Shown here: piece after piece, positions 18,367-63,122 of the stretch | Layout of the letters: the number at the start of each line of letters is the position of its first letter | How positions within the stretch are numbered: position 1 is the stretch's first letter | Source: Nitrospirota bacterium | Lineage (GTDB): Bacteria > Nitrospirota > Thermodesulfovibrionia > Thermodesulfovibrionales > UBA9159 | Direction of reading: 5' to 3' | Assembly: GCA_023475105.1 (NCBI GenBank) | Contig: JAMCWJ010000030.1 | Coordinates: 1,743 to 65,742 of the forward strand | Length of the DNA stretch: 64,000 nucleotides | Made by a program: the position numbers and the translations under genes | The notes under the pieces: model-generated | Seen by the model: the letters and a program-made list of their open reading frames with translations, nothing else | Told to the model about the DNA's origin: nothing | The model's database searches: none

Positions 18367-18423
18367 CTTTTCCCTCCTTTCTTTCAGTCCGTCATTCAGA
18401 AGGGATTGGCCCTTGATTCGACA

Positions 18424-19435: not shown

Positions 19436-19457
19436 ATTACTTTCTTGCTTGCCATGC

Positions 19458-19688: not shown

Positions 19689-19877
19689 GGTTACTACAGT
19701 TCAGACAGGGTGTCCACTACGCCGCCCTTACAGTCGCTTGATTAAGATGCCTGTCGATCATTTTGACAGATAATGAGTGGAAAAGAAGAAACAACCGCCT
19801 TTTTGCCGCCGATAGTGCAGCCGGCGACGGTATGAACCAGGACCCGGACGAGACGGCAGAAGAGCCACCCGCCTGCT

Positions 19878-21461
19878 TTAGCGGAACAGGCGGTAATCGG
19901 CATTCGGAAAGATATTGTCGATCTCCTCTATGGCAGACAGATATTCTTCGTCGATGGACTTCTTTTCGATCGAATCCGCGAGATAGCGGAAACGGGCAAC
20001 ATGATCTTTTATACGGCGCACTGCGTATCCCTCCGACGTCCCGTTGTTGATGATGAAAGGCCAGTCCGAACTCTGGGCGAGAAGCAGTTCCCGCACGCAC
20101 TGATTGAGGGCCCTTACCGTGATGTAGGGGACCCTTCCGATGCCGTATCTCCCCGCAAGTGACTCCATCCGGCGGCAGCACTCGTAGAGCTGGGGGTATA
20201 TCCAGTCTGTTTTTCCGTTCAGCCATGCCTCAAAATAGCCCTTATGTCCCCAAGTGGCGCAACAGGGGACACCCACCTGGTGGACCGGATGGCGGTCAAG
20301 GTATCCCGAAAGGGTGATAAGTTCGAGCGCACTCTGGTCGAAGGCGGCTTTCCGTATCAGAAAATCAAGCCACTGCGGTCCCTCAAACCACCAGTGACCG
20401 AAGAGTTCGGCATCAAAGGGCGCCACGACCACCGGCGCCGTCTCCATCATCGAATTCAGATACTCGATATGGGTGATCCTCTTGTGCAAAAAATCTCCGG
20501 CATGCTGCGCCGCCCTCTCTCTTGCCGCATCCGGGTGGTAGAGTTCCTTCCATGGAGTAGGCCCGGTGATACGGTGGTATTTTATGCCCGTATCGGCGCG
20601 CATATGCCCGGCGAGGTACGGCCGGATGTAGTTGAAGTCTAGGTCGTGGCCGATGTCACGGTAAAACTCCCGATAAGCGGGATCGCCGGGAAAGCCTTCG
20701 CGTGCGGACCATACCTGCTTCGTGCTTCCACGGTCACGTCCAAAGGCTGCGACTCCCGAGGGCGTATACAGTGGCGCGTACACCCCGTAAAAAGGGGTTG
20801 TTCCCGCGTGTTCGATCCCGTGTGACTCGAGGAGGAAATACCGTATCTCTTTGTCGCGGAGATCCTCTTCTAGGCCACGGCAATATCCGCATTCGGGAAG
20901 CCACATGCCCCGGGCGTCGAACCCGAAAACGCGCCCGAAATAATCAAGACCGGTGGCGAGTTGTGCGGTTACCGCTTTCGGATGTGGTGACAGGAGCGGC
21001 AGAAGCCCATGGGTTGCCGAGGTCGTAATAAGCTCGACCACACCGTGCTCATGAAACCTCTTGAAAGCGGAAGAAAGTCTTCCGCCATATTGTCCGACAA
21101 AGATCTGCCTCGCCTCCTCGAAAAGGCCCCTGTACATTCCCGCGAGATAGTTGAGGTGCGGGTCGTTGCGTGTCCTTTCGATTTCTTTTTCGCTCAACTC
21201 TATCAGTCTTGTGAGATGCTCCGCATACCTCTCCTGGAGAACTTGATCCTCCATCATCGCGAGGAGACTCGGAGAGACAGAGATGGTAAGTCTGAAGGGG
21301 ACGTTTTCGATGATGAGGCGGTCAAAGAATTTGACGAGCGGTATATAGGTTTCGGTCATCGCCTCGAAGAACCACCGCTCCTCAAGGAAGGTGTCGTGTT
21401 CGGGATGCCTCACAAAGGGCAGATGGGCGTGTAGTACGAATGCGAGATACCCCTTAGGCAT
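19878..21461 (-). CDS. GH57-family 1,4-alpha-glucan branching enzyme
   Basis: MPKGYLAFVLHAHLPFVRHPEHDTFLEERWFFEAMTETYIPL...ELITTSATHGLLPL...PECGY...FDAELFGHWWFEGPQWL. I chose the start at MPKGY; the listed ORF extends further upstream. Confidence 0.85.
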   Translation of the reverse strand: MPKGYLAFVLHAHLPFVRHPEHDTFLEERWFFEAMTETYIPLVKFFDRLIIENVPFRLTISVSPSLLAMMEDQVLQERYAEHLTRLIELSEKEIERTRNDPHLNYLAGMYRGLFEEARQIFVGQYGGRLSSAFKRFHEHGVVELITTSATHGLLPLLSPHPKAVTAQLATGLDYFGRVFGFDARGMWLPECGYCRGLEEDLRDKEIRYFLLESHGIEHAGTTPFYGVYAPLYTPSGVAAFGRDRGSTKQVWSAREGFPGDPAYREFYRDIGHDLDFNYIRPYLAGHMRADTGIKYHRITGPTPWKELYHPDAARERAAQHAGDFLHKRITHIEYLNSMMETAPVVVAPFDAELFGHWWFEGPQWLDFLIRKAAFDQSALELITLSGYLDRHPVHQVGVPCCATWGHKGYFEAWLNGKTDWIYPQLYECCRRMESLAGRYGIGRVPYITVRALNQCVRELLLAQSSDWPFIINNGTSEGYAVRRIKDHVARFRYLADSIEKKSIDEEYLSAIEEIDNIFPNADYRLFR

Positions 21462-25414: not shown

Positions 25415-25801
25415 TTGATGCAGGGGAAGCTAGCCTGTCCTGTCAATGGGGATGATCTTGTATTCCCCAGTTCCTCGGGAAGGCCGTCACAGCATGACAA
25501 CGGTGTAAAGAGACACTTTATTCCGGCGTTGACAAAGGCAAAGTTAAGACAGGTATCCTTCCATAGCCTGAGACATAGCAATGCAAGCATGAGGGTACAG
25601 GCAGGGCAGAATATCAAATACATTCAATCACAGATGGGTCATGCGAGCATAAATATCACTCTGGACATCTATGGACACCTGTTTAACGATGCAAACTTTA
25701 ACAGGCAACGGGTAGAGCTTTTAGAACGTTCTTTTAAATCCGTTGGAAATTCGTTAGAAAAACCCTTAGAAGTTGAAACTTCAGCCGCTGTAAATCAGTG
25801 A
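25415..25801 (+). pseudogene. tyrosine recombinase (phage-type integrase), C-terminal catalytic fragment only
   Basis: LVFPSSSGRPSQHDNGVKRHFIPALTKAKLRQVSFHSLRHSNASMRVQAGQNIKYIQSQMGHASINITLDIYGHLF contains the R..HxxR..Y region. The N-terminal ~200 residues are absent. Confidence 0.8.
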
Positions 25802-42152: not shown

Positions 42153-43076
42153 TTAATCATTTTTTGGTTCGGGCGAAGAGCAGAGGGATGTCCTGCCTAT
42201 CAAGACAGAAGTTCTTGAATGTGTCAGGATGTTTCTTGAAACACTTCCCATTGCGCGCTGGATTCCACTCAAGCCCCGGCAACCGACCACTATTATGTCC
42301 GTTTGCATTGCCTCGGATATTCTCAATATTTCCTTCGAGGGATCTCCATCCGCCGACAAAACATGTATCCCATCGAAACGTCTTTTCAGATGTTCTCGAG
42401 CCTCTTCAATAATCCTTTCAGAGTTCTCGCGCTCAGCCGCTCTTCCTCGCTCCGCCACCTCTCTGAACTTTTCCCCTATGAGCGGAATATGTTTAAGGAG
42501 TATATCGGACATTGCGGGCCAGATCACGTTCACAACTGTCATGTCCGTGTTTGCCGAAAAAGGCATTTCAGATAAAAAGTTAGCAGCCGCAAGAGAATGG
42601 GCAGAGCCGTCGGTAGCAAAAAGGATTCTAAGATTCCTCAATTTACTACACCCGGGAGGTTTAGAGATGAGGACAGGTCTTGACGCATCCAGAGCCACAG
42701 CATTTGTCACACTTCCGATGAACAATGATTCAATGCCCTTGATCCCTCTTGCCCCCATGGCAATCAGGTCGACGTCGGCAGCAGCTGCCGCATCGACTAT
42801 GCATTGCTCAGGGAGGCCTTCCTTTACCAAAGTGCTAATTCTTGCGCCAAGAGGTTTAACAATCCCCAGGGCGGCGTCAATTACCCTCGTCGCGATTTCT
42901 TTCTTTTTCTGGTTGATGGTATCTATATAAGACTTCGCATCTATATAATCATGGGGTATCCAAAACAGAGCATGCAAAACAATGATTTCGTCATCGGAAG
43001 ACAAATTCAGGCATGACAGTAATCTGGCCGCCAACGCCGAGTATTCAGATCCGTCAGTCGCAAGCAATATTTTCAA
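42153..43076 (-). CDS. tandem-domain universal stress protein
   Basis: MKILLATDGSEYS...DLIAMGARG...; the second domain has ILFATDGSAHS...IIVVGCRGLSG. Confidence 0.9.
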   Translation of the reverse strand: MKILLATDGSEYSALAARLLSCLNLSSDDEIIVLHALFWIPHDYIDAKSYIDTINQKKKEIATRVIDAALGIVKPLGARISTLVKEGLPEQCIVDAAAAADVDLIAMGARGIKGIESLFIGSVTNAVALDASRPVLISKPPGCSKLRNLRILFATDGSAHSLAAANFLSEMPFSANTDMTVVNVIWPAMSDILLKHIPLIGEKFREVAERGRAAERENSERIIEEAREHLKRRFDGIHVLSADGDPSKEILRISEAMQTDIIVVGCRGLSGIQRAMGSVSRNILTHSRTSVLIGRTSLCSSPEPKND

Positions 43077-43292
43077 TTGCTTTCACCGTATAAGACTCTT
43101 CAATGTCGATCAAATTATCTCAGAACTTGAAGCCGGTTTCAAGCGGAAAGATCGGAAAGATGAAGCTGCTCCGAGAAGCGACTCGGGCAAAAAGACAGGA
43201 GAAAGTGCCGATGCAGGTGCGGCAGGCGTCTGCTCCCCGGCAATGCAAGGCGTCCGCAGTGACCTGCCGCGCAATCTCCAGACCTTTTATCC

Positions 43293-44168
43293 CTAATTGA
43301 TTATGTTTGGATATAGCTTTGCGGCCAACGTGATAAGTAATGCAAAAATAGCCAGCAGCACAGCAAAATCGGAGACCAATCCGAATATGCTCTGTCCCCC
43401 CTCAATCATAGCGCTTCTGATCGCATCTATTTGATAGGTAAGGGGGTTCATCCTGGAGATGGTGCGCAACCAGGATGGCATAAGGCTTAATGGATAAATG
43501 GCATTACTGGTGAAAAAAAGCGGCATGGTCAATACCTGACCGATTCCCATGAAACGTTCCCGCGTCTTGACAATGCACGCTGCTATCAGGGAAAATGTCG
43601 CAAAGATCGCAGATCCCGTCATAACGGCCAGGAGAACCGTTGCAGTATTACTGAGACCAAGACGCAGATGAACGCCGAGTAGAAGAGCAAGAACGTAGAC
43701 GATGACGGCTTGTGACAAGCCTCTGACGCCTGCAGAAAGCGCTCTGCCCAGCACTAAAGCGTAGCGGGAAGCAGGGCTGACCAGAAATTTTTGTAAAATC
43801 CCAAGGTCGCGTTCCCATATGACCGATATGCCATAGAATATGGCGATAAAGAGAACACTCTGAGCTAAAATCCCCGGCGCGATGAAATCGAGATAGGGAA
43901 CTCCTCCTGTCGGAATTACATGCGCGTGGGCGAATACCTGGCCGAAGACCAGCAGCCACAATACTGGTTGCGTCATCCTCGTCAGCAGCTCAAGGGGATC
44001 GTGACTCAGCTTGCGGATATCGGTTTCAGCAACCGCGAAAGTCTGCCGCCAAAAATCCGCTAAACGATCCACATTATTCCACGCGCTCCGCCGTGTGGCG
44101 GGTTCTTGCGGCATCTCTGTAATCTCCTCTTTCTTCGATCGACGTCCCCGTGCATTGAATGAAAACAT
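43293..44168 (-). CDS. ABC-2 type transporter permease
   Basis: Six hydrophobic helices. DIRKLSHDPLELLTRMTQPVLWLLVFG is typical of ABC-2/DrrB-like permeases. The start may instead be 44114 (MPQEP). Confidence 0.85.
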   Translation of the reverse strand: MFSFNARGRRSKKEEITEMPQEPATRRSAWNNVDRLADFWRQTFAVAETDIRKLSHDPLELLTRMTQPVLWLLVFGQVFAHAHVIPTGGVPYLDFIAPGILAQSVLFIAIFYGISVIWERDLGILQKFLVSPASRYALVLGRALSAGVRGLSQAVIVYVLALLLGVHLRLGLSNTATVLLAVMTGSAIFATFSLIAACIVKTRERFMGIGQVLTMPLFFTSNAIYPLSLMPSWLRTISRMNPLTYQIDAIRSAMIEGGQSIFGLVSDFAVLLAIFALLITLAAKLYPNIIN

Positions 44169-44948
44169 CGTCCAGAGTTGCCTCAGCTCCCAGGGTACTC
44201 TTGAGTCTGGCCGGAGAATCCAGTGCCACTATGCGACTCTGGTGCATAAATGCGACATTCTCGCAGAGCCTGTCAGCTTCCTCCATATCGTGAGTTGTCA
44301 TGAAAATAGTGGTCCCGAATTCCTGACGCAGATTGCGGATGCGCTGCCATACTGAGTGCTTAGCGACGGGATCGAGTCCGACAGTCGGCTCGTCAAGGAA
44401 AAGCACCGCCGGCCGGTGCAACATGGCCTGGGCGACTTCCAATCGCCTGATCATCCCCCCCGAATAATGGCTCACCAGTCTGGAGGCAACGTGAGAGAGT
44501 TCCATGAAATCAAGGGCTTGTCTTATAACTTTCTTTCTTTCCATGCGTGAGATTCCATACAACTTTGCCGAGATCAGGAGATTTTCGTAGCCTGTCAATT
44601 CTCCGTCGGCTGAGAGCATCTGTGAAACATAGCCAATATTTCGCCTGACTTCCCGCGCCTGCCGGAGATATCAAAACCGGCCACTCGTGCGGTACCAATA
44701 GTCGGTCTCAGCAAAGTTGTCAACATCTTGATAGTAGTGCTTTTCCCCGCTCCATTTGTCCCCAGTAAACCGAATATCGAACCGGCAGCAATCGTTACAT
44801 TCAGATCATCCACGGCGAGCAAAGAACCGAAACGGCGTGAGAGACCGAAGGTTTCGACGGAAATGACGTCTGCCGGCAAGATGTGGCTTTGATTCGCTGA
44901 CTTGTCGGAGGAATTCACTTGCACATCTTGCCGATCAAAACAGAGCAT
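44074..44948 (-). CDS. ABC transporter ATP-binding protein (DrrA-like), interrupted by a frameshift near 44650-44668
   Basis: The N-terminal part carries Walker A GTNGAGKSTTIKML..VAGFDISGRR. The next frame reads AREVRRNIGYVSQMLSADGELTGYENL...SGGMIRRLEVAQAML...LFLDEPTVGLD. Confidence 0.85.
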
Positions 44949-45811
44949 TTCGCATGGGTAAGCACGTTTCTCGATACGCTCCCCATTATTCCCTTGAGCC
45001 CTCTCAGGCCTCTGCAGCCGACTGCTATGATATCGCTCTTGAGTGTCTCAGATACTCTCAATATTTCCGTTGAAGGGTCTCCGACTTCGGAGAGGACTTC
45101 TATTTTCTTGAATCTCTTGCTCAGATGTTCCCGGGCCAGCTCGGCGACACGTTCAGAATTCCTGAATTCCATTTCGCGTTCCCGAGCCTCGATCTCCATA
45201 ATGTGTTCATTTATTCCAGGATGCAAGACCTCCGGAATATTCAAGGAAAATGGCGCCGAGATCACGTTAAGGATCGCTATTTCGGTATTGTCCGGAAAAG
45301 GAAGTTCGGATAGGAATGCCCCGGTATCGGCTGCGCTATCAGATCCGTCGGTAGCAAAAAGTATTTTAAGCCGAACCGGACTGCCGCACCCGGGCCGTTT
45401 TATGACCAAAACCGGTTTCGATGAATTATGGGCGACTGATCTCGTCACGCTCCCGATGAAGAGCGATTTTATCCCCTTGATGCCCCTTGCACCCATGACG
45501 ATCAAATCCATACCGGATGAGTCGGCCGCCTCAACAATGCATTGTTCGGGAGTGTCTTCTTCAATAGCGGTGCTTATCTTCGCCTTCGCTGACTTCAGAA
45601 TAGCAAAAGCAGTATCAAGGATCTTTGGTGCTATTTCCCGCTTAATTTCTTTCAGCGTTTCGTAATAATATTCCCTTTCGTAGTAAAGTGGATACCAGTG
45701 TATGACATGAAAAACAGTAATTTCGTCATCGGGTGATAAATTCAGACATGACAAAAATCGGGTTGCCAACTCTGAGTATTCCGAGCCGTCTGTGGCAAGT
45801 AAAATTTTCAT
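44915..45811 (-). CDS. tandem-domain universal stress protein (paralog of 42153..43076)
   Basis: MKILLATDGSEYSELATRFLSCLNLSPDDEITVFH...DLIVMGARG...ILFATDGSDS...IIAVGCRGLRG. Confidence 0.9.
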   Translation of the reverse strand: MKILLATDGSEYSELATRFLSCLNLSPDDEITVFHVIHWYPLYYEREYYYETLKEIKREIAPKILDTAFAILKSAKAKISTAIEEDTPEQCIVEAADSSGMDLIVMGARGIKGIKSLFIGSVTRSVAHNSSKPVLVIKRPGCGSPVRLKILFATDGSDSAADTGAFLSELPFPDNTEIAILNVISAPFSLNIPEVLHPGINEHIMEIEAREREMEFRNSERVAELAREHLSKRFKKIEVLSEVGDPSTEILRVSETLKSDIIAVGCRGLRGLKGIMGSVSRNVLTHAKCSVLIGKMCK

Positions 45812-45901
45812 AAGAATCAATCCCTGTTAAGAGAAACATAGCACCTATCGGATCGAAATGCAAATACCTCCGGAAAAAAGTGCGGAAAGCAAACTCACTT
45901 C

Positions 45902-46666
45902 TCACAGACCCACGATCATGCGGAGAAGACGCTTCCGCGTCGGGATGAAGCCGAGGGCAAAGTCTTTCCCCACTGACTGCGGGCTGACATAGGTACCGAA
46001 CATCCTGTCCCAGACGGTCAGGATAAACCCGAGGTTCTTGTTCGAGAGTCCCCGTGCCCCGTGATGGACCCTGTGATAGTCGGGAGTGATAAAAACCTCC
46101 TGCAGGGGCCCCAGGTCCACCCGGATGTTCGCGTGGATCCAGATGTTCACCACCACCCCCAGAGAGAACGCCACGCCTGCCTCCCATGGAGCAAGTTTCA
46201 GGAAGGAGTAGGCGATTATTGTTTGAGGAACGGCGAAGAGAAAGAGATGCGTCACGCTGGTCCTCGACCCTGAAAGCCACCAGAGCTGTTCTATCGAATG
46301 GTGGAAGGTGTGAGTGCGCCACAGGAGAGGGCGATGCATGGCCCTGTGGACCCAGTAGAGACAGAAGTCGGCAAGGACGATCCCCAGGAGTATCTTCAGC
46401 ATGCCCGGGAGATTGCGGACACCGGCAAGGGCATGGACTCCTCCCGGCTTGAATACATTCAAGCCGCTCTTGAGAGTGACTTTCGATGTTTCCCCCGCAA
46501 CGATCACGACGAGCAGGGCGAGAATGTTCAGGGACAGCTGCCGTCTCCTGTCCACCGCGTGTCCGGGGCGGCGACGCTCCAGGAAGTCAATAAACAGAAC
46601 GATGACAACGAGCGTGATGATCTGATAGATCTGCTCTCTTCCTCCCATAGTAGAAGTATGGCACAA
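45902..46666 (-). CDS. fatty acid hydroxylase / sterol desaturase superfamily membrane protein
   Basis: Histidine boxes HRAMHRP, HTFHHS and HRVHHG within a polytopic membrane protein. Confidence 0.8.
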   Translation of the reverse strand: MCHTSTMGGREQIYQIITLVVIVLFIDFLERRRPGHAVDRRRQLSLNILALLVVIVAGETSKVTLKSGLNVFKPGGVHALAGVRNLPGMLKILLGIVLADFCLYWVHRAMHRPLLWRTHTFHHSIEQLWWLSGSRTSVTHLFLFAVPQTIIAYSFLKLAPWEAGVAFSLGVVVNIWIHANIRVDLGPLQEVFITPDYHRVHHGARGLSNKNLGFILTVWDRMFGTYVSPQSVGKDFALGFIPTRKRLLRMIVGL

Positions 46667-46737
46667 AACCGGTTTCAGTGCATCTCATGGCCCAGATCGC
46701 AGGAACAGCGGAGGTTCGTGCGGCGCAGGCCGGCACT

Positions 46738-47553
46738 TCATGGGGAACTCCGGTCTCTCAGGTTGCGGACGATTTCCGCGCCGACCAGGAAGATGGTCGA
46801 CGAATAAAATACCCAGAGGAGAAGGATGACGAATGTCGAGAGGGACCCGTAGATGGCGCCGTACCGGCCCGCAGCGGTGACGACGTAGAGGGTAAAGGGG
46901 TGTCTCGCGACTTCGAGGAAGACCGCCGTGAAAAGGCCTCCCCCAAAGGCATGGCTCAGCAATACCTTCTTCAGGGGCAGGAATTTGTACAGGGCGGTCG
47001 TGATGAAGAGAACGAGGAATACCGGTATGACGAACTGCACGAAGGAGGCGGTTATCCCGCTGATCTTCAGCGAGGGGAAGACCTCCAGAAGCGACTGGAG
47101 CATCCGTACCGCCGATGTCGCCGCGAAGGACATGACGATCAGCGCGGCGATCAGGGTCACGATAAGAAAGGAAGAGACGACCGACGTGAGCAGCGGCTGT
47201 CTCTTTTTCTGCCGGAAAATGACACGGGTCGCCTCTTCCAGGGCCATGTAGAATTGATAGGAAAAGTAGGCATAAATGACGAACGTGACTATGCCGATCT
47301 TTCTGTACGAAATCAGGGAGGTCAGCTGTTTCGTGATTTCCGGGACCGCGGCAGGAAAAAACATGGCCAGCCGGGCCGAAAAGAAATGGTAGAAACCTCC
47401 GCTTTCCCCGAGAAAATATCCGAAGATCGCGACGAGCATGAGGCTGAAGGGAATGAATGACATAAGGAAGAAATAGGCGACGGCCCCTGCAAGGAGCGGA
47501 CCGCCGTCCCTGAAAAAGTCAATGAAGCTCCTGAAAATCAATTTCACGGCCAT
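46738..47553 (-). CDS. YihY/BrkB family membrane protein
   Basis: FFRDGGPLLAGAVAYFFLMSFIPF...YGAIYGSLSTFVILLLWVFYSSTIFLVGAEI. Confidence 0.85.
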   Translation of the reverse strand: MAVKLIFRSFIDFFRDGGPLLAGAVAYFFLMSFIPFSLMLVAIFGYFLGESGGFYHFFSARLAMFFPAAVPEITKQLTSLISYRKIGIVTFVIYAYFSYQFYMALEEATRVIFRQKKRQPLLTSVVSSFLIVTLIAALIVMSFAATSAVRMLQSLLEVFPSLKISGITASFVQFVIPVFLVLFITTALYKFLPLKKVLLSHAFGGGLFTAVFLEVARHPFTLYVVTAAGRYGAIYGSLSTFVILLLWVFYSSTIFLVGAEIVRNLRDRSSP

Positions 47554-47720
47554 TCTCCGTCTGCTGGTTTTTCTCTTTCCTTTATATCATAAAACAAGAG
47601 CGTAAGAAAACCGGGAAAGGGAATGGTGTCGCTGCAAAAGGATGGCGACGTAGTTGTCGTTGTCGGCTTTTCTTGATTTTGCCCATTCGCCTTTGCTATT
47701 ATACACGCTGTTTTTTTAAC

Positions 47721-49711
47721 ATGGACCCTGAAACGTTTCTCTATATAGGCGTCGGTTGTTTTCTTCTCGGAGCGGTTCTGCCCCTGCCTCCGCTCCGGAA
47801 GATCACAAGTCTGTGCTATATCCTCCCGGCGGCCGGCGCCCTCAATCTCCTGGTCTACGGGCTCCTTCTCATATTCTTTCCTCCTGCGACCGTCGGTTCT
47901 TTTCCTATCTCGTCTGTTTTTGAGTTCCTCTTCTCAGGAGATGCGATATCCGGATTCTTTGTCGTCGTGATTTCGGTCCTGACCTTCAGTGCGTCGTTAT
48001 TTTCCATTGGGTATACCGGCGAAATGAAGAACCAGGGTCTGATGGGCTTTCTCTTCAGCCTTTTTGTCCTGAGCATGCTGGCGGTCGTAACAGCCGGCAA
48101 TATCATTACGTTCCTCATATCCTGGGAGACGATGTCCCTCATCTCCTATTTTCTTGTGACGATTGACAGAGACAAAGAGTCTGAAAAGGCGGGCCTCGTC
48201 TATGCAGTGATGACGCACATCGGGACAGCTTTCATAATTTGCTCTTTTCTTCTCCTTTACTCATATACGGGGCGGATGGATTTCTCCGGGATGAAGGATG
48301 CCGCGGAGCAGATACCCCTCGAAATAAAATCGCTCGTCTTCATTTTTTCGGTAATCGGCTTTGGTACCAAGGCAGGGATAATCCCGCTCCATACATGGCT
48401 TCCGAGGGCGCATCCCGCGGCCCCGTCCAACGTTTCCGCCCTGATGTCCGGGGTTATGATAAAAACGGGGATTTACGGCCTTGTGAGGATAGCCGTGGAC
48501 CTGCTGGGACCCGGCCCTGAGTGGTGGGGAATTGCAGTGCTTGTGATCGGCGCGGTCTCTTCAGTCCTTGGAGTGCTTTACGCATTAATGGAACATGACA
48601 TAAAGAGACTTCTGGCTTACCACAGCGTCGAAAACATCGGCATTATCCTTCTTGGTATCGGAGCCGCCATGATGTTCAGGAGCAGCGGCCTGTATAATCT
48701 GGCGGCCATAGCGCTCATTGCAGGGTTCTATCACACGCTCAATCACGCTGTTTTTAAAGGGCTCCTGTTTCTCGGCGCGGGTTCGGTGATGCATTCAACG
48801 CATAGAAAGAACATGGATGAAATGGGGGGCTGATAAAGACAATGCCCTGGACCGGGTTGTTCTTTCTTATAGGCTCGGTTTCGATCTGCGCACTGCCTCC
48901 TTTTAACGGGTTTGTGAGCGAGTGGCTGACCTTCCAATCGCTTCTCCTCGGTTTCTCATCTCCCTCCATAACTTCAAAAATAGTATCGCCGCTTGGCGGG
49001 GCCGCGCTGGCGCTCACCGGCGCGCTCGCTGCCGCATGTTTCGTCAAGGCGTTCGGCATATCATTCCTCGGGACGGCAAGAAGTCATCATGCTGAGAAAG
49101 CAAGAGAGGCGTCTCCCTCGATGATAGCGGGCATGGCTGTTTTGGCCCTCCTCTGTCTCCTTCTCGGCCTGTTTCCGGGCCCGGTGGTGACGCTGCTTTC
49201 ACCCGCCGCGTATATTCTTGCCGGCGCCGACGGCACGATCTCTTCAGGCGCGTTCCTTTATATCGGCGAAACCGCTGCGGGCATTTCTCCGGCCCTCATA
49301 CTGATTGCGATTGTGATAATGTCTGTGGCTACACTTGCCTTTATCCTTACGGTGGGCGGAAGGAGAAAATTGACTTACGGGGCTTCCTGGGACTGCGGTG
49401 TCCCGGCGCTGACTCCGAGGATGCAATATACTGCAACGGCCTTTACGAAACCCGTCCGGATGATATTCAAGAAAATTTACCTGCCGCGAAGGGAATTGAA
49501 GGTCTCCTACATACTGAAACCTTTCTTTGTAAGGTCCATAAAATACAGCGGCGAGATAACCCCCTTTTTTGAAAGGTTCTTCTACGAGCCGGCTACGGCC
49601 CTTATTTACAAGATAGCTGAGAGAGTGAGACCTCTCCAGTCGGGAAGTCTCCATCTTTATCTCGGATACATGCTGATAACCCTGATACTCCTTCTCATAT
49701 TCGGGAGCTGA
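47721..49711 (+). CDS. NuoL/HyfB/HycC-like antiporter-type subunit, split by a 1-nt frameshift at a G6 run (48824-48829)
   Basis: ISWETMSLISYFLV...GTKAGIIPLHTWLPRAHPAAPSNVSALMSGVMIKTGIYG...LLAYHSVENIG..., ending ..NMDEMGG*. One frame over, LIKTMPWTGLFFLIGSVSICALPPFNGFVSEW continues colinearly. Confidence 0.85.
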
Positions 49712-49712
49712 A

Positions 49713-50630
49713 ATGGAATATCTTCAATTTATTGTCATCATAATTTTCTCTCCTCTCATTCAGGGGATAATCAAGAAGGTGAAGGCCGCGATGCAGGGCA
49801 GGGTGGGGCCGGGCGTCTTCCAGCCCTATTATGATCTCGTGAGGCTTCTGAAAAAGGAGATGGTGATATCCGGTGTCACTTCCTGGGTGTTCAGGGCCAC
49901 CCCCTTTATCGTCTTCGCTTCGACCGTTGCCGCAGCAATGATTATCCCTGTGATCACGACGAGGTCTCCCTTCAGTGCGATGGGCGACGTCATCGCGCTC
50001 ATCTATATTTTCGCCCTGGGCAGATTTTTCATGGCCCTGGCCGGCCTCGACGCGGGGACCGCTTTCGGCGGTGAGGGCAGCAGCAGGGAGATGGCGGTGG
50101 CGATGCTCGTGGAACCGATGATGATGCTGAGCATATTCACGGCGGCGATAGCCGCCGGTTCGACGAACATCGCCGTGATTGCGGAAAAGCAGGACATATT
50201 CTATTCGCCTTCGCACGTCCTCGCCCTGTCCGCCTTCATCGTGGCGGTCGTCGCGGAGACGGGCAGGATTCCCGTCGATAACCCCGATACGCATCTGGAG
50301 CTGACGATGATCCACGAGGGAATGCTCCTCGAGTATTCCGGGAGGTACCTGGCTCTTATGGAATGGGCCCACTTTATGAAGCAGATGCTCCTGTTTACGC
50401 TCGCCGTCGACATCTTCTTTCCTCTCGGCATACCGGCCGCCACGGGCCTGCCGGGGCTTGCGGCGTCCTTCGGCATCTATTCCCTGAAGATGGTCCTGAT
50501 GGCGGTCCTGATGGCGGCAATTGAATCGTCAAGGGCGAAGCTGCGGTTTTTTCAGCTCCCTTCCCTCCTGGGAGGGGCCTTTGTCCTGGCCCTGCTTTCG
50601 CTCCTGACCTACATTATGATGGGGAAATGA
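49713..50630 (+). CDS. NuoH/HyfC/HycD-like membrane subunit
   Basis: KAAMQGRVGPGVFQPYYDLVRLLKKE...AETGRIPVDNPDTHLELTMIHEGMLLEYSGR. Confidence 0.85.
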   Translation: MEYLQFIVIIIFSPLIQGIIKKVKAAMQGRVGPGVFQPYYDLVRLLKKEMVISGVTSWVFRATPFIVFASTVAAAMIIPVITTRSPFSAMGDVIALIYIFALGRFFMALAGLDAGTAFGGEGSSREMAVAMLVEPMMMLSIFTAAIAAGSTNIAVIAEKQDIFYSPSHVLALSAFIVAVVAETGRIPVDNPDTHLELTMIHEGMLLEYSGRYLALMEWAHFMKQMLLFTLAVDIFFPLGIPAATGLPGLAASFGIYSLKMVLMAVLMAAIESSRAKLRFFQLPSLLGGAFVLALLSLLTYIMMGK

Positions 50631-50652
50631 ATAAAGAGATCAAAATAAGATC

Positions 50653-50722
50653 GTCATTGCGAGGCGTTGTGCGCCGAAGCAATCTCAAGGCGGGGGGATT
50701 GCTTCACTTCGTTCGCAATGAC
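50653..50722. repeat. nested-palindrome dispersed repeat, variant copy C (inside the operon)
   Basis: Sequence gtcattgcgaggcgttgtgcgccgaagcaatctcaaggcggggggattgcttcacttcgttcgcaatgac. 10-bp terminal inverted repeat GTCATTGCGA/TCGCAATGAC and inner inverted repeat GAAGCAATC/GATTGCTTC. Confidence 0.8.
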
Positions 50723-50739
50723 AGGGTAAGGCGTCTGAT

Positions 50740-51399
50740 TTGAAGAACTGGATACAGGCATTTTCGGTGATCGATTTCATATCCGTGGGGATACTGCTCA
50801 CCGCGGTCTCGATGAACGCCCTCAAGAGACTTGAGTCGTGCGTGAAGGTGTACACGCTGAATTCCTGGCTCCTGGCGTCTCTGATCGCAATCGTGTCATT
50901 TATGATCGGGGAGGCTCACCTCTATGTTGCCGCCGCGCTGACATTGACGACAAAGGGCGTTCTCCTCCCTGTTTTTCTCAAGAGGATCGTGAGACAGATG
51001 AAGGTGACCCGGGACGACGAGCCGTACATCAACAATGCCCTCTCCCTTACCATCTCCGGGGTCCTTGTGGCGGTAGTTTATGTATCGCTGGGGGAGGGGA
51101 TATTCGTTTCGGGTTTCTCAAGGAATGTGCTGCAGATCTCCATTGCGGTGATCGTCATAGGGCTGTTCACGATGATCACCCGCAGGAAAGCAATAACACA
51201 AGTGATCGGGCTGCTTTTTATGGAAAACGGCCTCTTCTTGGCCGGATTTTCTCTCACATTCGGCATGCCGCTAATCATAGAGCTTGGGGTCTTGTTCGAC
51301 ATGCTTATGGGAGTGATCATACTGGGAATATTTGTCGTACAGATTAAGAGGTCCTTTCTTTCTACGGACCTCGACAAGCTGACGACCCTGAGAGGTTGA
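50740..51399 (+). CDS. HyfE-like (NuoK-related) membrane subunit
   Basis: A 219-aa polytopic protein positioned as hyfE. ...VIGLLFMENGLFLAGFSLTFGMPLIIELGVLFDMLMGV. TTG start is uncertain. Confidence 0.75.
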   Translation: MKNWIQAFSVIDFISVGILLTAVSMNALKRLESCVKVYTLNSWLLASLIAIVSFMIGEAHLYVAAALTLTTKGVLLPVFLKRIVRQMKVTRDDEPYINNALSLTISGVLVAVVYVSLGEGIFVSGFSRNVLQISIAVIVIGLFTMITRRKAITQVIGLLFMENGLFLAGFSLTFGMPLIIELGVLFDMLMGVIILGIFVVQIKRSFLSTDLDKLTTLRG

Positions 51400-52859
51400 A
51401 GATGATCGGCGTATTACTGCTTATTCCCGTTGTTACCGCCCTGCTGTGCTCATTCTTCAGGAACAGGAAGACGATCGAAGTTATCAACGTTATCGGGGTC
51501 ATCGCCCTGACGGCGGTCTCCGTCCCACAGATCACAGGCGCTCTTTCGGCGCAGGAATATTTCATGGGAGGCGTCCTGTTTATGGATGCCCTTTCCGCCT
51601 ATATCATGGCAATCGTTGTATTTATCGCCCTTGTTGCCGCAATCTATTCAGTAGATTATATGGGACAGGAATATAAAGAGGGAGCGGTGACCTTAAAGGG
51701 GCTGCGTTATTATTATGCCCTATTTCATCTCTTCATATTCACCATGCTCCTTGTTTCCGTATCGAACAACCTCGCGGTATTCTGGATAGCGATAGAAGGA
51801 ACAACACTCGTCTCGGCGCTCCTTGTCGGTTTCTACAAGAACAGGCAATCTATCGAAGCGGCATGGAAGTACATTATTCTTTGTACGGTGGGAATCACCT
51901 TTGCACTGCTGGGGATATTCATTACCTATTACGCCTCGGCTGGAGCAACGGGGGGAAAGGGCACACTGAACTGGACGGAACTGAGAGAAATGTCACACAG
52001 GCTTAACCCATCGACGATGAAGCTGGCGTTCATCCTAATACTTATCGGTTACGGTACAAAGGCCGGGCTCGCGCCGGTCCATAACTGGCTCCCGGACGCC
52101 CACAGCCAGGCTCCGACGCCGATAAGCGCTCTCCTTTCGAGTATTCTGCTTAAATGTGCCTTTATCGGGATTGTGAGGTTTGCTATTATTCTCAACGGTT
52201 CTGCCGGCTCTTCATACGCCGGCAACCTCCTCCTGATATTCGGTTTATTGTCCATGGGGATTGCTACTGCATTTATCCTTCTTCAAAACAATTATAAGAG
52301 GCTGCTTGCCTATCACAGCATTGAACATATAGGGATCATAGCCACCGGGATGGGGCTAGGCGGGCCTCTCGGCATTTACGGTTCCCTGCTGCATATCCTC
52401 AACCATGCTATTGTGAAAGCCTTGCTCTTTTTTACCACCGGCCAGGTAAGGCTAAGGTACTTTTCTACGAAAATTGACAAAGTCAGGGGCGTGATAACCC
52501 TTCTGCCGGTTTCGGGGGCCGTCATGCTGCTCGCGGCGCTCGCCATTGCGGGCACGCCTCCATTTAACATTTTTCTGAGCGAGTTTATCATCCTTAAGGC
52601 CGCAGCCGAAGGCGGAAGCTGGGTAACATTCACTCTTTTCCTGGTATTCGCGACGATTATTTTCGGTGGTGTCCTGCATCACTTCGGCGGTATGGCTTTC
52701 GGGGAACCCAACGTCAGCCACGAGATGAAAGGAGAGCGTAAACTGGTAAGTATTTTGATTGTTGTCATGGCAACCGGCATGCTCTTGCTGGGGGTTTATG
52801 TACCTTCGTTTCTTGAGCTGATGCTCTCCGGTTCTCTCAAGGTCATCACGGGGGGATGA
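51396..52859 (+). CDS. NuoN/NuoM/HyfF-like antiporter-type subunit
   Basis: FWIAIEGTTLVSALLV...GYGTKAGLAPVHNWLPDAHSQAPTPISALLS...LLAYHSIEHIG. The start overlaps the upstream stop. Confidence 0.85.
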   Translation: MKMIGVLLLIPVVTALLCSFFRNRKTIEVINVIGVIALTAVSVPQITGALSAQEYFMGGVLFMDALSAYIMAIVVFIALVAAIYSVDYMGQEYKEGAVTLKGLRYYYALFHLFIFTMLLVSVSNNLAVFWIAIEGTTLVSALLVGFYKNRQSIEAAWKYIILCTVGITFALLGIFITYYASAGATGGKGTLNWTELREMSHRLNPSTMKLAFILILIGYGTKAGLAPVHNWLPDAHSQAPTPISALLSSILLKCAFIGIVRFAIILNGSAGSSYAGNLLLIFGLLSMGIATAFILLQNNYKRLLAYHSIEHIGIIATGMGLGGPLGIYGSLLHILNHAIVKALLFFTTGQVRLRYFSTKIDKVRGVITLLPVSGAVMLLAALAIAGTPPFNIFLSEFIILKAAAEGGSWVTFTLFLVFATIIFGGVLHHFGGMAFGEPNVSHEMKGERKLVSILIVVMATGMLLLGVYVPSFLELMLSGSLKVITGG

Positions 52860-52862
52860 TGC

Positions 52863-54392
52863 ATGATGAATAATGAGCACTACAGAGAGCTGGGGGGCCG
52901 GGAATTCAGAGATCACTGTATCTCACTTTGCCGAAGCGGTTTCACTCTTCGCCTGATGTTTGCAACCGATGAAAGGGAGAACGAAGGATGTTTCAAAATC
53001 TATGTGGTTTTTTCAGAAACAGGAAAAGACAGTTTTCAGATACCGTTCCTGAAGCTGAAGGGAGACGACCTTTCCTATCATGGCCTGACTCCGGATATTC
53101 CTGCCGTGCACTGGTACGAACGTGAGATTCACGACATGTTCGGCCTCACTCCCGAGGGTCATCCGGACCTCCGAAGGCTTGTTTTCCATGACTCTTTCCC
53201 CGGGGACTCGTACCCTCTCAGGAAGGACTGGAAGATTAGTGAGGCCGAGTTAAGGGAATGGGGCGAGGGGCTGGTCCGGAAGGAACCGTATCATTTCATG
53301 GAAGTGAAGGGAGAGGGCGTCTATGAGATACCCGTGGGGCCCGTTCACGCCGGAATAATCGAGCCGGGGCATTTCAGGTTCAGCGCGGTGGGCGAGACCA
53401 TATTTTTCCTCGAGCCGAGGCTGTTTTATACGCACAAGGGTACGGAGAAGCTTTTCGAGGGGTTCGGGTTCAGTGAAGGTGTCAGGCTTGCTGAAAGGGT
53501 GTCCGGCACATCGTCATTTTCTCACGGCACCGCTTACTGCATGGCGGTGGAGAGGATGTCCGGGACCGATATCCCCGAAAAAGCAAAGGCGATAAGGACA
53601 CTCCTTCTGGAACTTGAGAGGTTGTATAACCATGTTGGGGACATCGGCAATATGTGCGCGGGGACCGGGCTTGCCGTGGGATATGCCGCCGGCGCGCTCA
53701 TCAAAGAAAAGCTCATGCAGCTTAATGAGAGAGTGTCGGGAAGCAGATATCTGAGGGGGGTGAATGTTATCGGAGGGGTGACAAAAGACATATTTCAGTA
53801 CGCCGATGACATCCTGACGACGCTCGAGACAGCGACAGGGGATTACAAGGCGTTCATGAAACTGCTCCTCGGCGCGATCTCGCATGTTGAGCGGCTGGAA
53901 AACGCCGGGCAACTGTCCAGGGAGATCGCGATGAAACTTGGAGTGACAGGCGTGGCTGCAAGGGCCTCCGGGGTAAACGACGACATCAGAAAGGCGCATC
54001 CCCATCTCCTCTACGACAGGCTCGAATTCGAACCGCACACCACGACAAGGGGCGACGTCTTTGCGAGGATGATGGTGAGGGCCGAAGAGGCGGAGTGCTC
54101 CATATCCATGATCCATGCGCTCCTTGAGAGGAATTACGGAAGAGAGCTTGCTGCGGAGGTGAAGGACGTGTCCCCGCATGCCTGCGCCCTAGGGTACACC
54201 GAGTCGCCGAGAGGCTCGCTCTTCTACTGGGTCAAATCGGATGCAGAGGGAAGACCGCTCAGGGTGAAACTGAGGTCGCCGTCCTATTGCAATTGGCCCG
54301 CGGTCCCCTTTGCGGTGCACGGAAACATCGTTCCTGATTTTCCGCTCTGCAACAAGAGCTTCAATCTCTCCTATTCCGGATGCGATATGTGA
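52863..54392 (+). CDS. NuoC-NuoD fusion / HycE-HyfG-like large subunit lacking the [NiFe] cysteine ligands
   Basis: HWYEREIHDMFGL (NuoC part). GPVHAGIIEPGHFRFSAVGE, ESPRGSLFYW (NuoD/large-subunit part). RVSGTSSFSH stands where RxCGxCxxxH is expected. The C-terminus is ..FNLSYSGCDM*. Confidence 0.85.
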   Translation: MMNNEHYRELGGREFRDHCISLCRSGFTLRLMFATDERENEGCFKIYVVFSETGKDSFQIPFLKLKGDDLSYHGLTPDIPAVHWYEREIHDMFGLTPEGHPDLRRLVFHDSFPGDSYPLRKDWKISEAELREWGEGLVRKEPYHFMEVKGEGVYEIPVGPVHAGIIEPGHFRFSAVGETIFFLEPRLFYTHKGTEKLFEGFGFSEGVRLAERVSGTSSFSHGTAYCMAVERMSGTDIPEKAKAIRTLLLELERLYNHVGDIGNMCAGTGLAVGYAAGALIKEKLMQLNERVSGSRYLRGVNVIGGVTKDIFQYADDILTTLETATGDYKAFMKLLLGAISHVERLENAGQLSREIAMKLGVTGVAARASGVNDDIRKAHPHLLYDRLEFEPHTTTRGDVFARMMVRAEEAECSISMIHALLERNYGRELAAEVKDVSPHACALGYTESPRGSLFYWVKSDAEGRPLRVKLRSPSYCNWPAVPFAVHGNIVPDFPLCNKSFNLSYSGCDM

Positions 54393-54402
54393 GGAGGTTC
54401 TC

Positions 54403-54933
54403 ATGATAAAGGAAATTCTTAAAAACATAACGGGGAAAAAGCAGGCGATCCGGTTTCCCGGGGGGAGTGCCGTATCCCCTGAAGACGCGGCGAAGATCCC
54501 GGCGCTTCAGGAGGGGATGGGGAAGGTTTTCCGCAGGTCCCTCAGGATCCGGCAGGTCGACGGAGGATCGTGCAATGCCTGCGAGTGGGAATGTACGGCG
54601 CTCACGAATCCGGTCTACGATGTCGAGAGGTTTGGCATCGGCTTCGTCGCATCGCCGAGGCACGCGGACGCGCTCCTCGTGACCGGCCCCGTCTCGCGGC
54701 AGATGGAGCTTGCGCTGAGAAAGACCTACCTCGCGACCCCGGAGCCCAGGCTCGTGATCGCCTTGGGCGACTGTGCCGTCGACGGAGGTATTTACAAGGG
54801 GAGCTACGCGGTCACGGACGGGGTCGCGAACGTCATACCTGTGGACTGTTTCATCCCGGGATGTCCGCCTTCCCCGGCGGAGATCATAGCGGGCGTCCTG
54901 CGACTGCTGGAAGAGCTGGCCCGCAGAAAATGA
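54403..54933 (+). CDS. NuoB/HycG-like small subunit with one [4Fe-4S] site
   Basis: RBS GAGGAGG. GGSCNACEWE, ..ALGDCAVDGG.., ..IPGCPPSP supply the four-Cys N2-type cluster pattern. Confidence 0.85.
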   Translation: MIKEILKNITGKKQAIRFPGGSAVSPEDAAKIPALQEGMGKVFRRSLRIRQVDGGSCNACEWECTALTNPVYDVERFGIGFVASPRHADALLVTGPVSRQMELALRKTYLATPEPRLVIALGDCAVDGGIYKGSYAVTDGVANVIPVDCFIPGCPPSPAEIIAGVLRLLEELARRK

Positions 54934-55014: not shown

Positions 55015-55764
55015 ATGGAAGAAGTATACAGCATAAAGCTCCCAGTCTTCGAAGGCCCCCTTGATCTCCTCCTGCATCTCATTAAGGAGAACAAGGTCGA
55101 TATTTACGACATACCGATTGCGCTCATCACCCATCAATACCTCGAATACATCGAGATGATGAAAGAACTCAACCTCGATGTTGCGGGGGAATTTCTTCTC
55201 ATGGCGGCGACCCTTATCCATATCAAGTCCAGAATGCTCCTCCCCGTGGAAGAAGTGTCCGGGGAGGAACCGCAGGACCCGAGGTTCGAGCTGGTCCAGA
55301 GGCTTATCGAATATCAGGCGTTCAAAGAGGCGTCGCTTGCGCTGAAGGAGAAGGAAGAGGAGTGGAGCAGCGTCTTTTCCAGGGAGGCCGGAGACACGGA
55401 GGAGGAAAGCGAAAATAGCGGGGAGCTGGACCTTTTTGACCTAAGCCTTTTCGACCTTCTCGGCGCTTTCAGAAAACTTCTCGAGAAGGCGCCGCCGGAG
55501 ATCGTTAATATCACCAAGGAGACTTTGACCGTCAAGGACAGGATCGCCTTTATTATGGAAAGGCTCGAAAATCAGGAGACCGTGCGCTTCGAAGCCCTCT
55601 TCGAGGGCGCAATGACGAAGGCCTACCTTATCGTGACCTTCGTAGCCCTCCTCGAAATCCTCAGACTGGGACTCGCAAGGGCCTATCAGGAGGGAGACTT
55701 CGGAACGATATGGGTCATCAATTCCCAACGGCAGCCGGCGGGGGAAATCGGGCCGGCGGAATAA
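55015..55764 (+). CDS. scpA: segregation and condensation protein A
   Basis: FEGPLDLLLHLIKENKVDIYDIPIALITHQYLEYI...AGEFLLMAATLIHIKSRMLLP. Confidence 0.9.
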   Translation: MEEVYSIKLPVFEGPLDLLLHLIKENKVDIYDIPIALITHQYLEYIEMMKELNLDVAGEFLLMAATLIHIKSRMLLPVEEVSGEEPQDPRFELVQRLIEYQAFKEASLALKEKEEEWSSVFSREAGDTEEESENSGELDLFDLSLFDLLGAFRKLLEKAPPEIVNITKETLTVKDRIAFIMERLENQETVRFEALFEGAMTKAYLIVTFVALLEILRLGLARAYQEGDFGTIWVINSQRQPAGEIGPAE

Positions 55765-62194: not shown

Positions 62195-63122
62195 GGGGTC
62201 AGGTCTTTAGAAGTAGCAACAAGCGATATTATTTGATATACTTTTGTTAATGTCGAGACCATTAAGGATAGAGTACGACGGCGCAGTGTATCATGTGACA
62301 TCGCGGGGTAATGCGCGGAAGCCTGTTTATCGGGACGATACTGACCGGGGGATATTCCTTGATGTGCTTCATAAAGTCAACGAGAAATTCAACTGGCTTT
62401 GTCATGCCTACTGCCTAATGAACAACCACTATCACCTAATTGTCGAGACACCTGATGGAAACCTGTCAAAAGGCATGCGACAGCTCAACGGCGTCTACAC
62501 CCAACTTTTCAATAAACTGCATCATCGGGTCGGCCACATATTTCAGGGCAGGTATAAGGCGATTCTCATCCAGAAAGAAAGCCATTTACTGGAAGTCTGC
62601 CGGTATGTGGTGTTGAACCCGGTGAGAGCCAGGGCTGTAACGAGACCGGAGGAATGGCAATGGAGCAGCTATCGGGGTACTGCCGGATTTGAAAAAAGGC
62701 ATCCGTCGGTAACGACGGACTGGGTGCTCGGGCAGTTCGGAACGAGGCGAAATGAAGCGGAAAGGAGATACAGGGAGTTTGTTCGTGATGGCGTCGGGGT
62801 AGGGGGAATATGGAGAGAAGTGAGGGGGCAGAGCCTGCTTGGGGAAAAGAGTTTTGCTGAAGAACTCATGGGATATGTGAAAGGGCAAAGAGACATCAGG
62901 GAGATACCGAAGAGCCAGCGGTATGCTGACAGGCCGACACTCGAAAAAATCTTCACTGTAGATATCGTCGGCAAGAAGAAAAAAAGAGACAGGAAAATTG
63001 TTGATGCTGTTGAACGATATGGGTACAGCCAACGGGAAATTGCAGAACACTTGGGTATGCACTATACGACGATAAGTAGGATCGTAAATGAGTTATAACG
63101 CTAAACCTAAAGACCTGACCCC
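62195..63122 (+). mobile_element. 928-bp unit: Y1 (IS200/RayT-like) transposase gene bounded by perfect 16-bp inverted repeats
   Basis: Left GGGGTCAGGTCTTTAG (62195-62210) and right CTAAAGACCTGACCCC (63107-63122) are exact reverse complements. They lie 33 bp before the ATG and 8 bp after the stop of the enclosed gene. Confidence 0.65.
62244..63098 (+). CDS. IS200/RayT-like Y1 transposase-family protein with C-terminal DnaA-C-like HTH
   Basis: [14 protein letters not shown]...[53 protein letters not shown]...YVVLNPVRA has the HUH (HYH) and Tyr regions. C-terminus [23 protein letters not shown]. Confidence 0.8.

Follow-up and report, generated by a model that had tools for sequence, protein, structure and literature searches.

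A six-gene Ehr-type cluster from a Nitrospirota bacterium, related to group-4 hydrogenases and lacking the nickel–iron ligands of the large subunit

What can a membrane complex built like a group-4 hydrogenase do when its large subunit has lost the residues that hold the nickel–iron centre, and when no genes for electron input or maturation accompany it? The question is raised by a cluster of six plus-strand genes at positions 47721–54933 of a 64 kb stretch of DNA from a Nitrospirota bacterium (GenBank assembly GCA_023475105.1, contig JAMCWJ010000030.1; the whole stretch is called the window below), which we delimited from a listing of open reading frames (ORFs), Pfam and NCBIfam searches, and tblastn with Hyf, Hyc and Nuo proteins of E. 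coli. An earlier note on this DNA, made from the letters alone, had read the cluster as an operon of the energy-converting-hydrogenase-related (Ehr) type, and the cysteine-less large subunit, the set of subunits and the neighbourhood all support that reading. Ehr is a recognised class whose function is given as unknown in the sources that describe it (PMC6349859, PMC10284858, PMC6728331), and the locus adds another representative to this known class. We think it probable that the six genes, here called ehrA, ehrB, ehrC, ehrD, ehrL and ehrS, encode a six-subunit membrane complex derived from Hyf/Ech-like group-4 hydrogenases, and that this complex is a hydrogen-independent, ferredoxin-linked, redox-coupled ion translocator.

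The evidence that carries this assignment lies first in the large subunit. EhrL aligns over its full length with E. coli HycE (7z0s_E, E = 2.9e-83), ahead of any NuoD or MbhL/MbsL, and is 35% identical to HycE/HyfG in tblastn. Residues S214, S217, S503 and G506 of EhrL align with the four [NiFe]-binding cysteines of HycE: the L1 motif is ERVSGTSSFSH in EhrL and DRVCGICGFAH in HycE, the L2 motif is NLSYSGCDM and DPCYSCTDR respectively, and the group-4 signatures RxCGxC and DPCxxC are absent (RVSGTS and NLSYSG are found instead). The loss of nickel ligands, as claimed in the earlier note, thus extends to all four cysteine positions. The replacements are invariant or nearly so in 71 EhrL orthologues and recur in the paralogous second copies described below; the orthologues show practically no variation in the motifs VGPVHAGIIEPGHFRF, ERVSGTSSFSH and NKSFNLSYSG, and Cys507 is variable among them (C, T, S, N or H). 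EhrL ends three residues past NLSYSG, where HycE carries a 32-residue maturation peptide. Because EhrL has no nickel–iron site, the complex presumably neither makes nor uses H2.

The hydrogenase scaffold is nevertheless retained, including the invariant HAGIIEPGHFRF loop that bears the proton-relay Glu. An AlphaFold model of EhrL, made from an input alignment of close relatives only, had a mean predicted local distance difference test score (pLDDT) of 70.6 and a predicted template-modelling score of 0.76; its best fold match was HycE (7z0s_E, template-modelling score 0.76), with E. coli NuoCD next. The structure-based classification that had been proposed as a check therefore returns a HycE-like scaffold without the ligands, in agreement with the Ehr assignment.

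We then placed EhrL among its relatives, 9,779 of which were returned by a HMMER scan; the classification covers the best 150 cluster representatives of these. About 100 of the 150 are without the cysteines and typically read S-G-D/T-S/T and NLSYSG, about 40 keep all four (ERxCGxC and LCYxCxDR) and have no C-terminal extension, and a few are canonical Hyc/Hyf proteins, with DPCYSCTDR and an extension of 29–32 residues. The four-Cys relatives may be true hydrogenases, because all four [NiFe] cysteines are kept. They have in common with the window's EhrL the HAGIIEPGHFRF loop, the NKSF motif and the lack of a C-terminal extension, but they keep ERxCGxC and LCYxC, whose four cysteines are Ser, Ser, Ser and Gly in the window. 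When 94 Cys-less representatives were set against 23 four-Cys representatives, the only positions that were at least 80% conserved in each group yet different between them were 503 (Ser versus Cys) and 506 (Gly versus Cys), and 71 further positions were conserved jointly in both groups. The sole group-specific conserved changes relative to possible true hydrogenases are, in other words, at metal-ligand positions.

In a neighbour-joining tree whose deep nodes have support below 70 and which contains no HydDB references, the clade of the window (bootstrap 100) lies inside a radiation of 126 Cys-less and four-Cys sequences, apart from HycE/HyfG and from NuoCD. The tree is compatible with one loss of the cysteines as well as with several. 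The literature places Ehr in the same position, next to group 4f (PMC10284858); where the four-Cys relatives are called ‘4f-like’, the label is borrowed from that branching statement. The motifs RVSGTSSFSH and NKSFNLSYSG set the window's clade apart from most other Cys-less representatives, which have SGD instead of SGT. A protein identical to EhrL is on record from a ‘Nitrospirae bacterium’ metagenome-assembled genome (MAG), and more than 100 MAG proteins, mainly from Thermodesulfovibrionales/Nitrospirota, are 70–82% identical to it.

The cluster ligands and the residues of ion translocation are all retained. Of 62 EhrS orthologues, 62, 62, 62 and 61 respectively have the cysteines C58, C61, C125 and C155 (numbered from position 54400), which supply ligands of the hydrogenase type, CxxC...C...C, to one [4Fe-4S] cluster. 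The CxxC pair is shared with the small subunit of E. coli Hyc/Hyf (group 4a; 7Z0S), the closest solved structure, whereas NuoB of complex I has a tandem CC. The operon also contains homologues of the NuoCD, NuoH, NuoK-like and NuoL/M/N-like subunits of complex I. In its antiporter-like subunits the complex I pattern of Glu in transmembrane helix (TM) 5, Lys in TM7, His in TM11 and Glu/Lys in TM12 is kept: residues E136, K217, H338, H342, K346 and E401 of EhrA (restored numbering; see below) and E134, K222, H337 and E396 of EhrD are invariant or nearly so. The invariant charged residues of EhrB that are common to NuoH and HycD are R30, D41, R125, E134, R185, D189, E196, E202, E207 and K259, and NuoH E157, D213, E220 and E228 have conserved equivalents there. 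The conserved E162, E181 and D187 of EhrC correspond to HyfE E159, E178 and D184. As judged from these alignments, EhrA–EhrD retain the charged residues with which complex I and formate hydrogenlyase transfer protons and achieve coupling.

Where, then, do electrons enter? The earlier note had reported that a HycF/NuoI-type subunit, a formate or CO dehydrogenase and hyp/hycI genes are all missing from the window, and every search that we made agrees. With E. coli HyfA, HycB, HycF, HyfH, NuoI, HycI, HycH, HyfJ, HypA, HypB, NuoA, NuoJ and NuoEFG as queries, tblastn gave no match in the 64 kb window at E ≤ 1e-3; the motif CxxCxxCxxxC occurs in none of the window ORFs of at least 40 residues; and Pfam annotation of the rest of the window contains no hyp, formate dehydrogenase or CO dehydrogenase genes. 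What it does contain is sensor kinases, MEDS proteins, a disulfide oxidoreductase, SAM synthetase, glycogen enzymes, M16 peptidases, an aconitase-family protein, a TolC/HlyD/MacB efflux set, USP proteins and an IS200-like transposase. Thus, of the features that accompany Hyc/Hyf in E. coli, namely four large-subunit cysteines, the 32-residue peptide, HycF/HyfH, HycB/HyfA, formate dehydrogenase H, HycI and hyp genes, none is found in the window, and of complex I it lacks NuoA, NuoI, a separate NuoJ and NuoEFG. Within the window the metal ligands are lost, no ferredoxin-like or hyp gene is found, and unrelated genes bound the operon on both sides.

The same holds beside related loci in other genomes. 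We compared 80 species-level genome loci, mostly from Nitrospirota (Thermodesulfovibrionales); the others include Scalindua/Brocadiaceae (anammox bacteria), Aquificaceae, Dissulfurispiraceae and a single archaeon, of the Hydrothermarchaeota. The genes stand in the same order in 77 of the 80, which, like the 70–82% identity of EhrL, speaks for selection, and the complete six-gene set is present in 59; ehrA was found in 63 loci and is intact in 52, the others being cut by contig ends or lying in frameshift-rich long-read MAGs. The flanks vary between genomes, and among the 584 flanking ORFs of these loci there is no recurrent Fe-S partner or NuoI/HycF-like gene; a ferredoxin motif occurs in nine of the 584, none of them recurrent or NuoI-sized. 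The comparison of neighbourhoods thus describes a self-contained six-gene set with variable flanks. When the flanking ORFs were clustered in search of an electron partner, the only widespread family was one of generic sensor kinases and response regulators, which we rejected, as we did a Fer4 protein beside one locus (L001) and glutamate-synthase-like genes beside another (L002), neither of which recurs.

Two loci have a ferredoxin-like domain in another place. In the Cys-less Hydrothermarchaeota MAG (L075 8349–9068; EhrL 49% identical) the small subunit carries an N-terminal 2x[4Fe-4S] domain with two CxxCxxCxxxC motifs, and in a four-Cys Firmicute (L089 8773–9495) it carries a fused N-terminal Fer4 domain with one such motif. 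The fused domain may stand in for the NuoI/HycF subunit, and the fusion in the archaeal MAG supports Fe-S-mediated electron input in the family. The gene context of the four-Cys proteins was read from two of them (P0122 and P0129), the closest four-Cys protein (P0121) being on a contig of only 2.2 kb. In Desulfitobacterium hafniense DCB-2 (P0129, L090; CP001336.1, 3956–11141) the order HyfB-HyfC-HyfE-HyfF-large-small is the same as in the window, and NuoI/HycF is likewise not encoded separately. Since both examined four-Cys loci (L090 and L089) have the six-gene layout and no NuoI gene of its own, a partner is less likely to be missing than electron input is to be of the ferredoxin type, either direct or through a fused domain. 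The D. hafniense cluster lies between housekeeping and sporulation genes, in a cultured organism, and its complex is a natural comparator for Ehr.

A second, paralogous six-gene set lies directly downstream of the first in 23 of the 80 loci, at about 12.1–20 kb in locus coordinates, in Nitrospirota and Scalindua (L029, L030, L033, L037, L040, L046, L047, L053, L054, L065, L066, L069, L073 and L082 among them); the window has one set only. The second set is 31–48% identical and is likewise Cys-less, with the motifs xRVSGDTT and NKSFNQSYSG. In Scalindua, three of the four [4Fe-4S] cysteines of its small subunit (258–259 residues; L029 19037–19813 and L065 10385–11164) are replaced by D, D and N, and the N-terminal domain is ferredoxin-like and degenerate, so that this paralogue may be redox-dead.

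One feature of the locus had escaped the earlier note, which lists the NuoL/HyfB-like first gene without mention of a break: ehrA is frameshifted. The break lies in the run ATGGGGGGCTGA, where the G run is one base shorter than in the in-frame ATG GGN GGN CTN of relatives, and the junction reads ATG GGG GGC TGA TAA AGA CA ATG CCC. Adding one G to the G6 run restores an unbroken EhrA of 663 residues with the canonical M-G-G-L-I-K-T-M-P-W-T. HyfB/HycC also match the C-terminal part in tblastn, and the break separates the TM11 His/Lys residues from the TM12 Glu of the antiporter core. Because about 60 relatives are in frame across the site, three of them through a G7 run, we regard the lesion as a one-base deletion and not as a conserved recoding site. 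A programmed frameshift was rejected on the same comparison, since the G run is not conserved and most relatives have GGC GGA or similar, all in frame. An assembly artefact as the sole cause is also unsupported: the Logan assembly of SRR10267473 (L004), made independently, has the identical split, although the error may lie in the reads themselves. Two further genes of the window are interrupted. An ABC-transporter ATPase (44074–44948, minus strand) is spread over two overlapping ORFs that match PF00005 positions 2–51 and 73–136, and is likewise split in the Logan assembly, and a phosphoketolase (XFP; 8286–10764, plus strand) consists of two ORFs with a break near 9100, the third interrupted gene in 64 kb. 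Either the data set is prone to indels or the population carries pseudogenes; EhrA itself may be made here as a two-piece subunit, be rescued by occasional slippage, or have been inactivated recently.

How would an Ehr-type complex work? Because there is no NuoI/HycF-type subunit, we suppose that electrons would pass directly between the EhrS cluster and a soluble carrier of low potential, for which ferredoxin is the likeliest candidate. A second substrate would occupy the pocket, between EhrL, EhrS and EhrB, that once held the metal, and redox turnover of the cluster would drive H+ or Na+ through EhrA and EhrD; alternatively, an ion gradient could drive the redox reaction in reverse. For the second substrate we rank menaquinone first, as plausible in a lineage of the menaquinone type: the complex would then be a ferredoxin:menaquinone oxidoreductase, perhaps working backwards as a source of reduced ferredoxin. 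Second comes a sulfur compound that would be reduced at the cluster, by analogy with what has been proposed for MBS. MBS is a respiratory complex that descends from hydrogenases but has ceased to make H2, with 13 subunits that include a NuoI-like subunit and an Mrp-type module, and its catalysis has reportedly been assigned to the proximal [4Fe-4S] cluster. EhrL matches the large subunit of MBS/Mbx of Pyrococcus furiosus (6U8Y) much more weakly than HycE (6u8y_L, 5.2e-32, against 2.9e-83), and the resemblance is one of mechanism and not of membership, a precedent for how Ehr could work.

Several observations weigh against this reading, or against parts of it. The mechanism, donor and acceptor included, is inferred from conservation. 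The quinone ligands of complex I are absent from EhrL, where NuoCD H224 and Y273 align with I166 and G215, and Gly is found at the position of the quinone Tyr in 88 of the 94 Cys-less representatives. Quinone cannot be the universal Ehr acceptor, because Ehr-type complexes occur in lineages reported to be without quinone synthesis (PMC6349859; for bacteria of the candidate phyla radiation, CPR, bioRxiv 10.1101/2019.12.18.881540). Apart from the changes from Cys to Ser or Gly, the comparison of 94 with 23 representatives found no new Ehr-wide conserved residues that would mark a catalytic site, and the EhrL model is unreliable where the pocket is formed, with a pLDDT below 50 in residues 130–196 and 468–509. 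The loss of cluster cysteines from the second copy in Scalindua implies that some members of the wider family may not be redox enzymes. Finally, this particular complex may be inactive, since its ehrA is frameshifted.

The last of these points can be taken further. If the NuoL-like subunit is cut between the TM11 His/Lys and the TM12 Glu, the locus could be a recently inactivated remnant that yields no working complex, as the one-base deletion against about 60 in-frame relatives, its recurrence in an independent assembly of the same run and the split ATPase and phosphoketolase genes, with their suggestion of gene decay or of an indel-prone data set, would allow. We consider this unlikely. The other five genes are intact and 71–85% identical to their orthologues; the ATG of the second ORF lies 8 nt past the stop, so that EhrA could be made in two pieces by re-initiation; a –1 slip might take place on G GGG GGC, which UGA follows; and the homopolymer may hold a consensus error, with the gene in truth whole. 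In addition, ‘EhrA-1’ in the seven-gene GSU0739–0745 cluster of Geobacter hints that a divided NuoL-like subunit may be tolerated. That a larger enzyme exists of which the six genes specify no more than the core, with an input module encoded elsewhere (HycF/NuoI-like, or a formate dehydrogenase with NuoE/F-like subunits) that docks at the NuoI site, strikes us as rather improbable. Such a module is absent from the 64 kb window, no ferredoxin-motif ORF among the 584 flanking the 80 loci is recurrent or NuoI-sized, and the flanks change from genome to genome. It should be said for a remote module that gene co-occurrence in Margulisbacteria and Saganbacteria has led to the proposal of a formate dehydrogenase–Ehr complex there (PMC6349859), that Ehr proteins of Geobacter increase on formate (PMC7894505), and that the fused ferredoxin domains of L075 and L089 make an Fe-S relay sometimes part of the design.

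A more radical alternative is that the complex is not a redox enzyme at all but a Mrp-like cation/proton transporter, which has kept the peripheral arm and its Fe-S cluster for structure or regulation. This would account for fully conserved antiporter residues in a complex with neither quinone ligands nor Ehr-specific catalytic residues in EhrL, for the Scalindua paralogue, which is without cluster ligands and keeps the rest of the operon, and perhaps for an ArsB/NhaD-like permease that recurs near seven loci (assigned by eye, not by hidden Markov model). It would leave unexplained the four cluster cysteines that are invariant in the window's clade, the 71 EhrL positions, proton-relay loop included, that are conserved jointly with four-Cys relatives, and the small subunit with a fused ferredoxin domain in a Cys-less relative. 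Moreover, the operon proteins match no MrpB/E/F/G-type families in Pfam, the only antiporter-type resemblance being subunits of the PF00361 type and a weak PF00420 match, and a NuoB/NuoCD arm is present. We regard the proposal as very improbable. That the locus encodes a functional group-4 hydrogenase, which would evolve H2 at an active site of unconventional make, is scarcely credible: 35% identity to HycE/HyfG overall and a weak match to PF00374 are set against four metal-binding cysteines replaced by Ser or Gly, the lack of a C-terminal peptide for protease-dependent maturation, the absence of hyp and hycI genes from the window and published analyses in which Ehr is considered incapable of reacting with H2 (PMC10284858, PMC6728331).

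Starting from the ferredoxin-linked ion translocator that we prefer, a wider conjecture can be framed, in which we place little confidence. Ehr and its four-Cys sisters might together be the smallest natural coupling machine of the complex I/hydrogenase kind, with six subunits, one [4Fe-4S] cluster, feeding by ferredoxin and no NuoI relay. The Ser-lined, metal-free pocket of Ehr would then serve neither H2 nor a canonical quinone but, for example, a sulfur compound reduced at the cluster; or the complex would run in reverse, with gradient-driven reduction of ferredoxin for autotrophic CO2 fixation. If this were true, the 23 loci with tandem sets, including that with the ligand-less Scalindua copy, could pair a catalytic module with a purely ion-conducting one.

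The Ehr systems already described are of the same kind. The Geobacter sulfurreducens genes GSU0739–0745 (EhrA-1, EhrC, EhrL, EhrS and others) specify the same subunit types, NuoL-like, HyfE-like, large and small, as compared by literature names only (PMC7894505, PMC8691401), and the ‘hyc’ cluster Rv0082–Rv0087 of M. tuberculosis (Rv0081–0087 in another description) corresponds by its published description, not by sequence. A large subunit without CxxC motifs and a cluster without maturation genes of its own are common to the literature Ehr systems and the window (PMC7894505, PMC6728331, PMC10284858); the frameshifted ehrA is unlike the systems described. In Geobacter the Ehr proteins are expressed, are raised on formate and have been proposed to act in reverse electron transport (PMC7894505). 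Ehr has also been discussed for Margulisbacteria, CPR bacteria and comammox Nitrospira. Our literature search found no solved structure or assay of an Ehr complex.

Complexes of this class are widespread, occurring in sulfate reducers, anammox bacteria, Geobacter, M. tuberculosis, Nitrospira and candidate phyla, and stand in evolution between hydrogenases and complex I. The locus does not by itself settle their function; the comparison narrows the problem, and the value of the locus lies in these comparative constraints and not in any unusualness. For annotation, public records name these genes ‘NADH-quinone oxidoreductase subunit C’ or ‘hydrogenase-4 component G’, and metabolic reconstructions from MAGs should enter them neither as hydrogenase or formate hydrogenlyase nor as complex I.

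The layout of the operon is given in Table 1. The best E. coli counterparts of the six genes in tblastn are HyfB, C, E, F, G and I, and their relative order matches; Pfam, NCBIfam and tblastn together confirm the six subunits in the order and at the coordinates first proposed. The genes had also been described as tightly packed or overlapping. This is so for most intergenic distances, which range from –4 to +10 nt, but not for the 109 nt that precede the HyfE-like ehrC. The flanking yihY-like and scpA genes are, as had been claimed, unrelated to the cluster by the annotation on either side. For EhrC, NF008556 (HyfE, 6.9e-27) and PF00420 (1e-4) each score under their curated cutoffs, and the alignment with relatives spans residues 1 to 219. 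EhrD has 487 residues from TTG 51396 or 485 from ATG 51402. Among the NCBIfam matches the small subunit alone clears its curated cutoff, as a generic NuoB (NF005012, 129 bits against a cutoff of 116 bits), and no Ehr-specific model exists. Promoter-like sites are no more numerous in the region than expected by chance, and it is position alone that makes the one before ehrA suggestive.

Table 1. Features of the ehr cluster and its borders (window coordinates).
Feature	Position	Strand	Description
BrkB/YihY gene	46738–47553	–	Divergent; upstream boundary of the cluster
Promoter-like site	47673–47702	+	TTGATT, 18 nt, TG-TATTAT; precedes the start codon of ehrA by 19 nt; consensus scan
ehrA, whole	47721–49711	+	HyfB/NuoL-like; two ORFs
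ehrA, N-terminal part	47721–48833	+	370 residues, TM1 to about TM11, premature TGA; PF00361 at 1.7e-46; NF005086 (HyfB) positions 8–376 of 669
G6 run	48823–48828	+	Frameshift site; one base fewer than in relatives
ehrA, C-terminal part	48842–49711	+	289 residues from ATG; TM12 Glu and HyfB-type C-terminal extension; NF005086 positions 381–666 of 669 at 1.8e-77
ehrB	49713–50630	+	305 residues; NuoH/HyfC/HycD-like membrane subunit; PF00146 at 7.8e-49; 38% identity to HyfC
ehrC	50740–51399	+	219 residues, TTG start; HyfE-like membrane subunit, C-terminal half NuoK-like
ehrD	51396–52859	+	HyfF/NuoM/NuoN-like antiporter subunit; PF00361 at 1.8e-56; NF005044 (HyfF) at 2.3e-142, under cutoff
ehrL	52863–54392	+	509 residues; NuoC-NuoD fusion, HycE-like large subunit; PF00329, PF00346 and PF00374 (PF00374 weak)
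ehrS	54403–54933	+	176 residues from ATG 54403; NuoB/HycG-like small subunit; PF01058 at 6.5e-31
scpA	55015–55764	+	Downstream boundary of the cluster; followed by rplI, dnaB and alr

Upstream of the cluster, the minus-strand genes at 42153–47553 encode two tandem-USP proteins, an ABC-2 permease with the split ATPase, a fatty-acid hydroxylase-family protein and BrkB/YihY, and the same set is present in the Logan contig. Elsewhere in the window there are an IS200-like Y1 transposase with a helix-turn-helix domain (62244–63098, plus strand), a truncated phage-integrase-family ORF (25415–25801, plus strand) and a patch of low GC content at 18000–20000 (0.46, against about 0.54), which together hint at mobile or foreign DNA. 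Two adjacent MEDS-domain proteins are encoded at 1492–4864 on the minus strand, one of which is an 856-residue MEDS-GAF-PAS histidine kinase.

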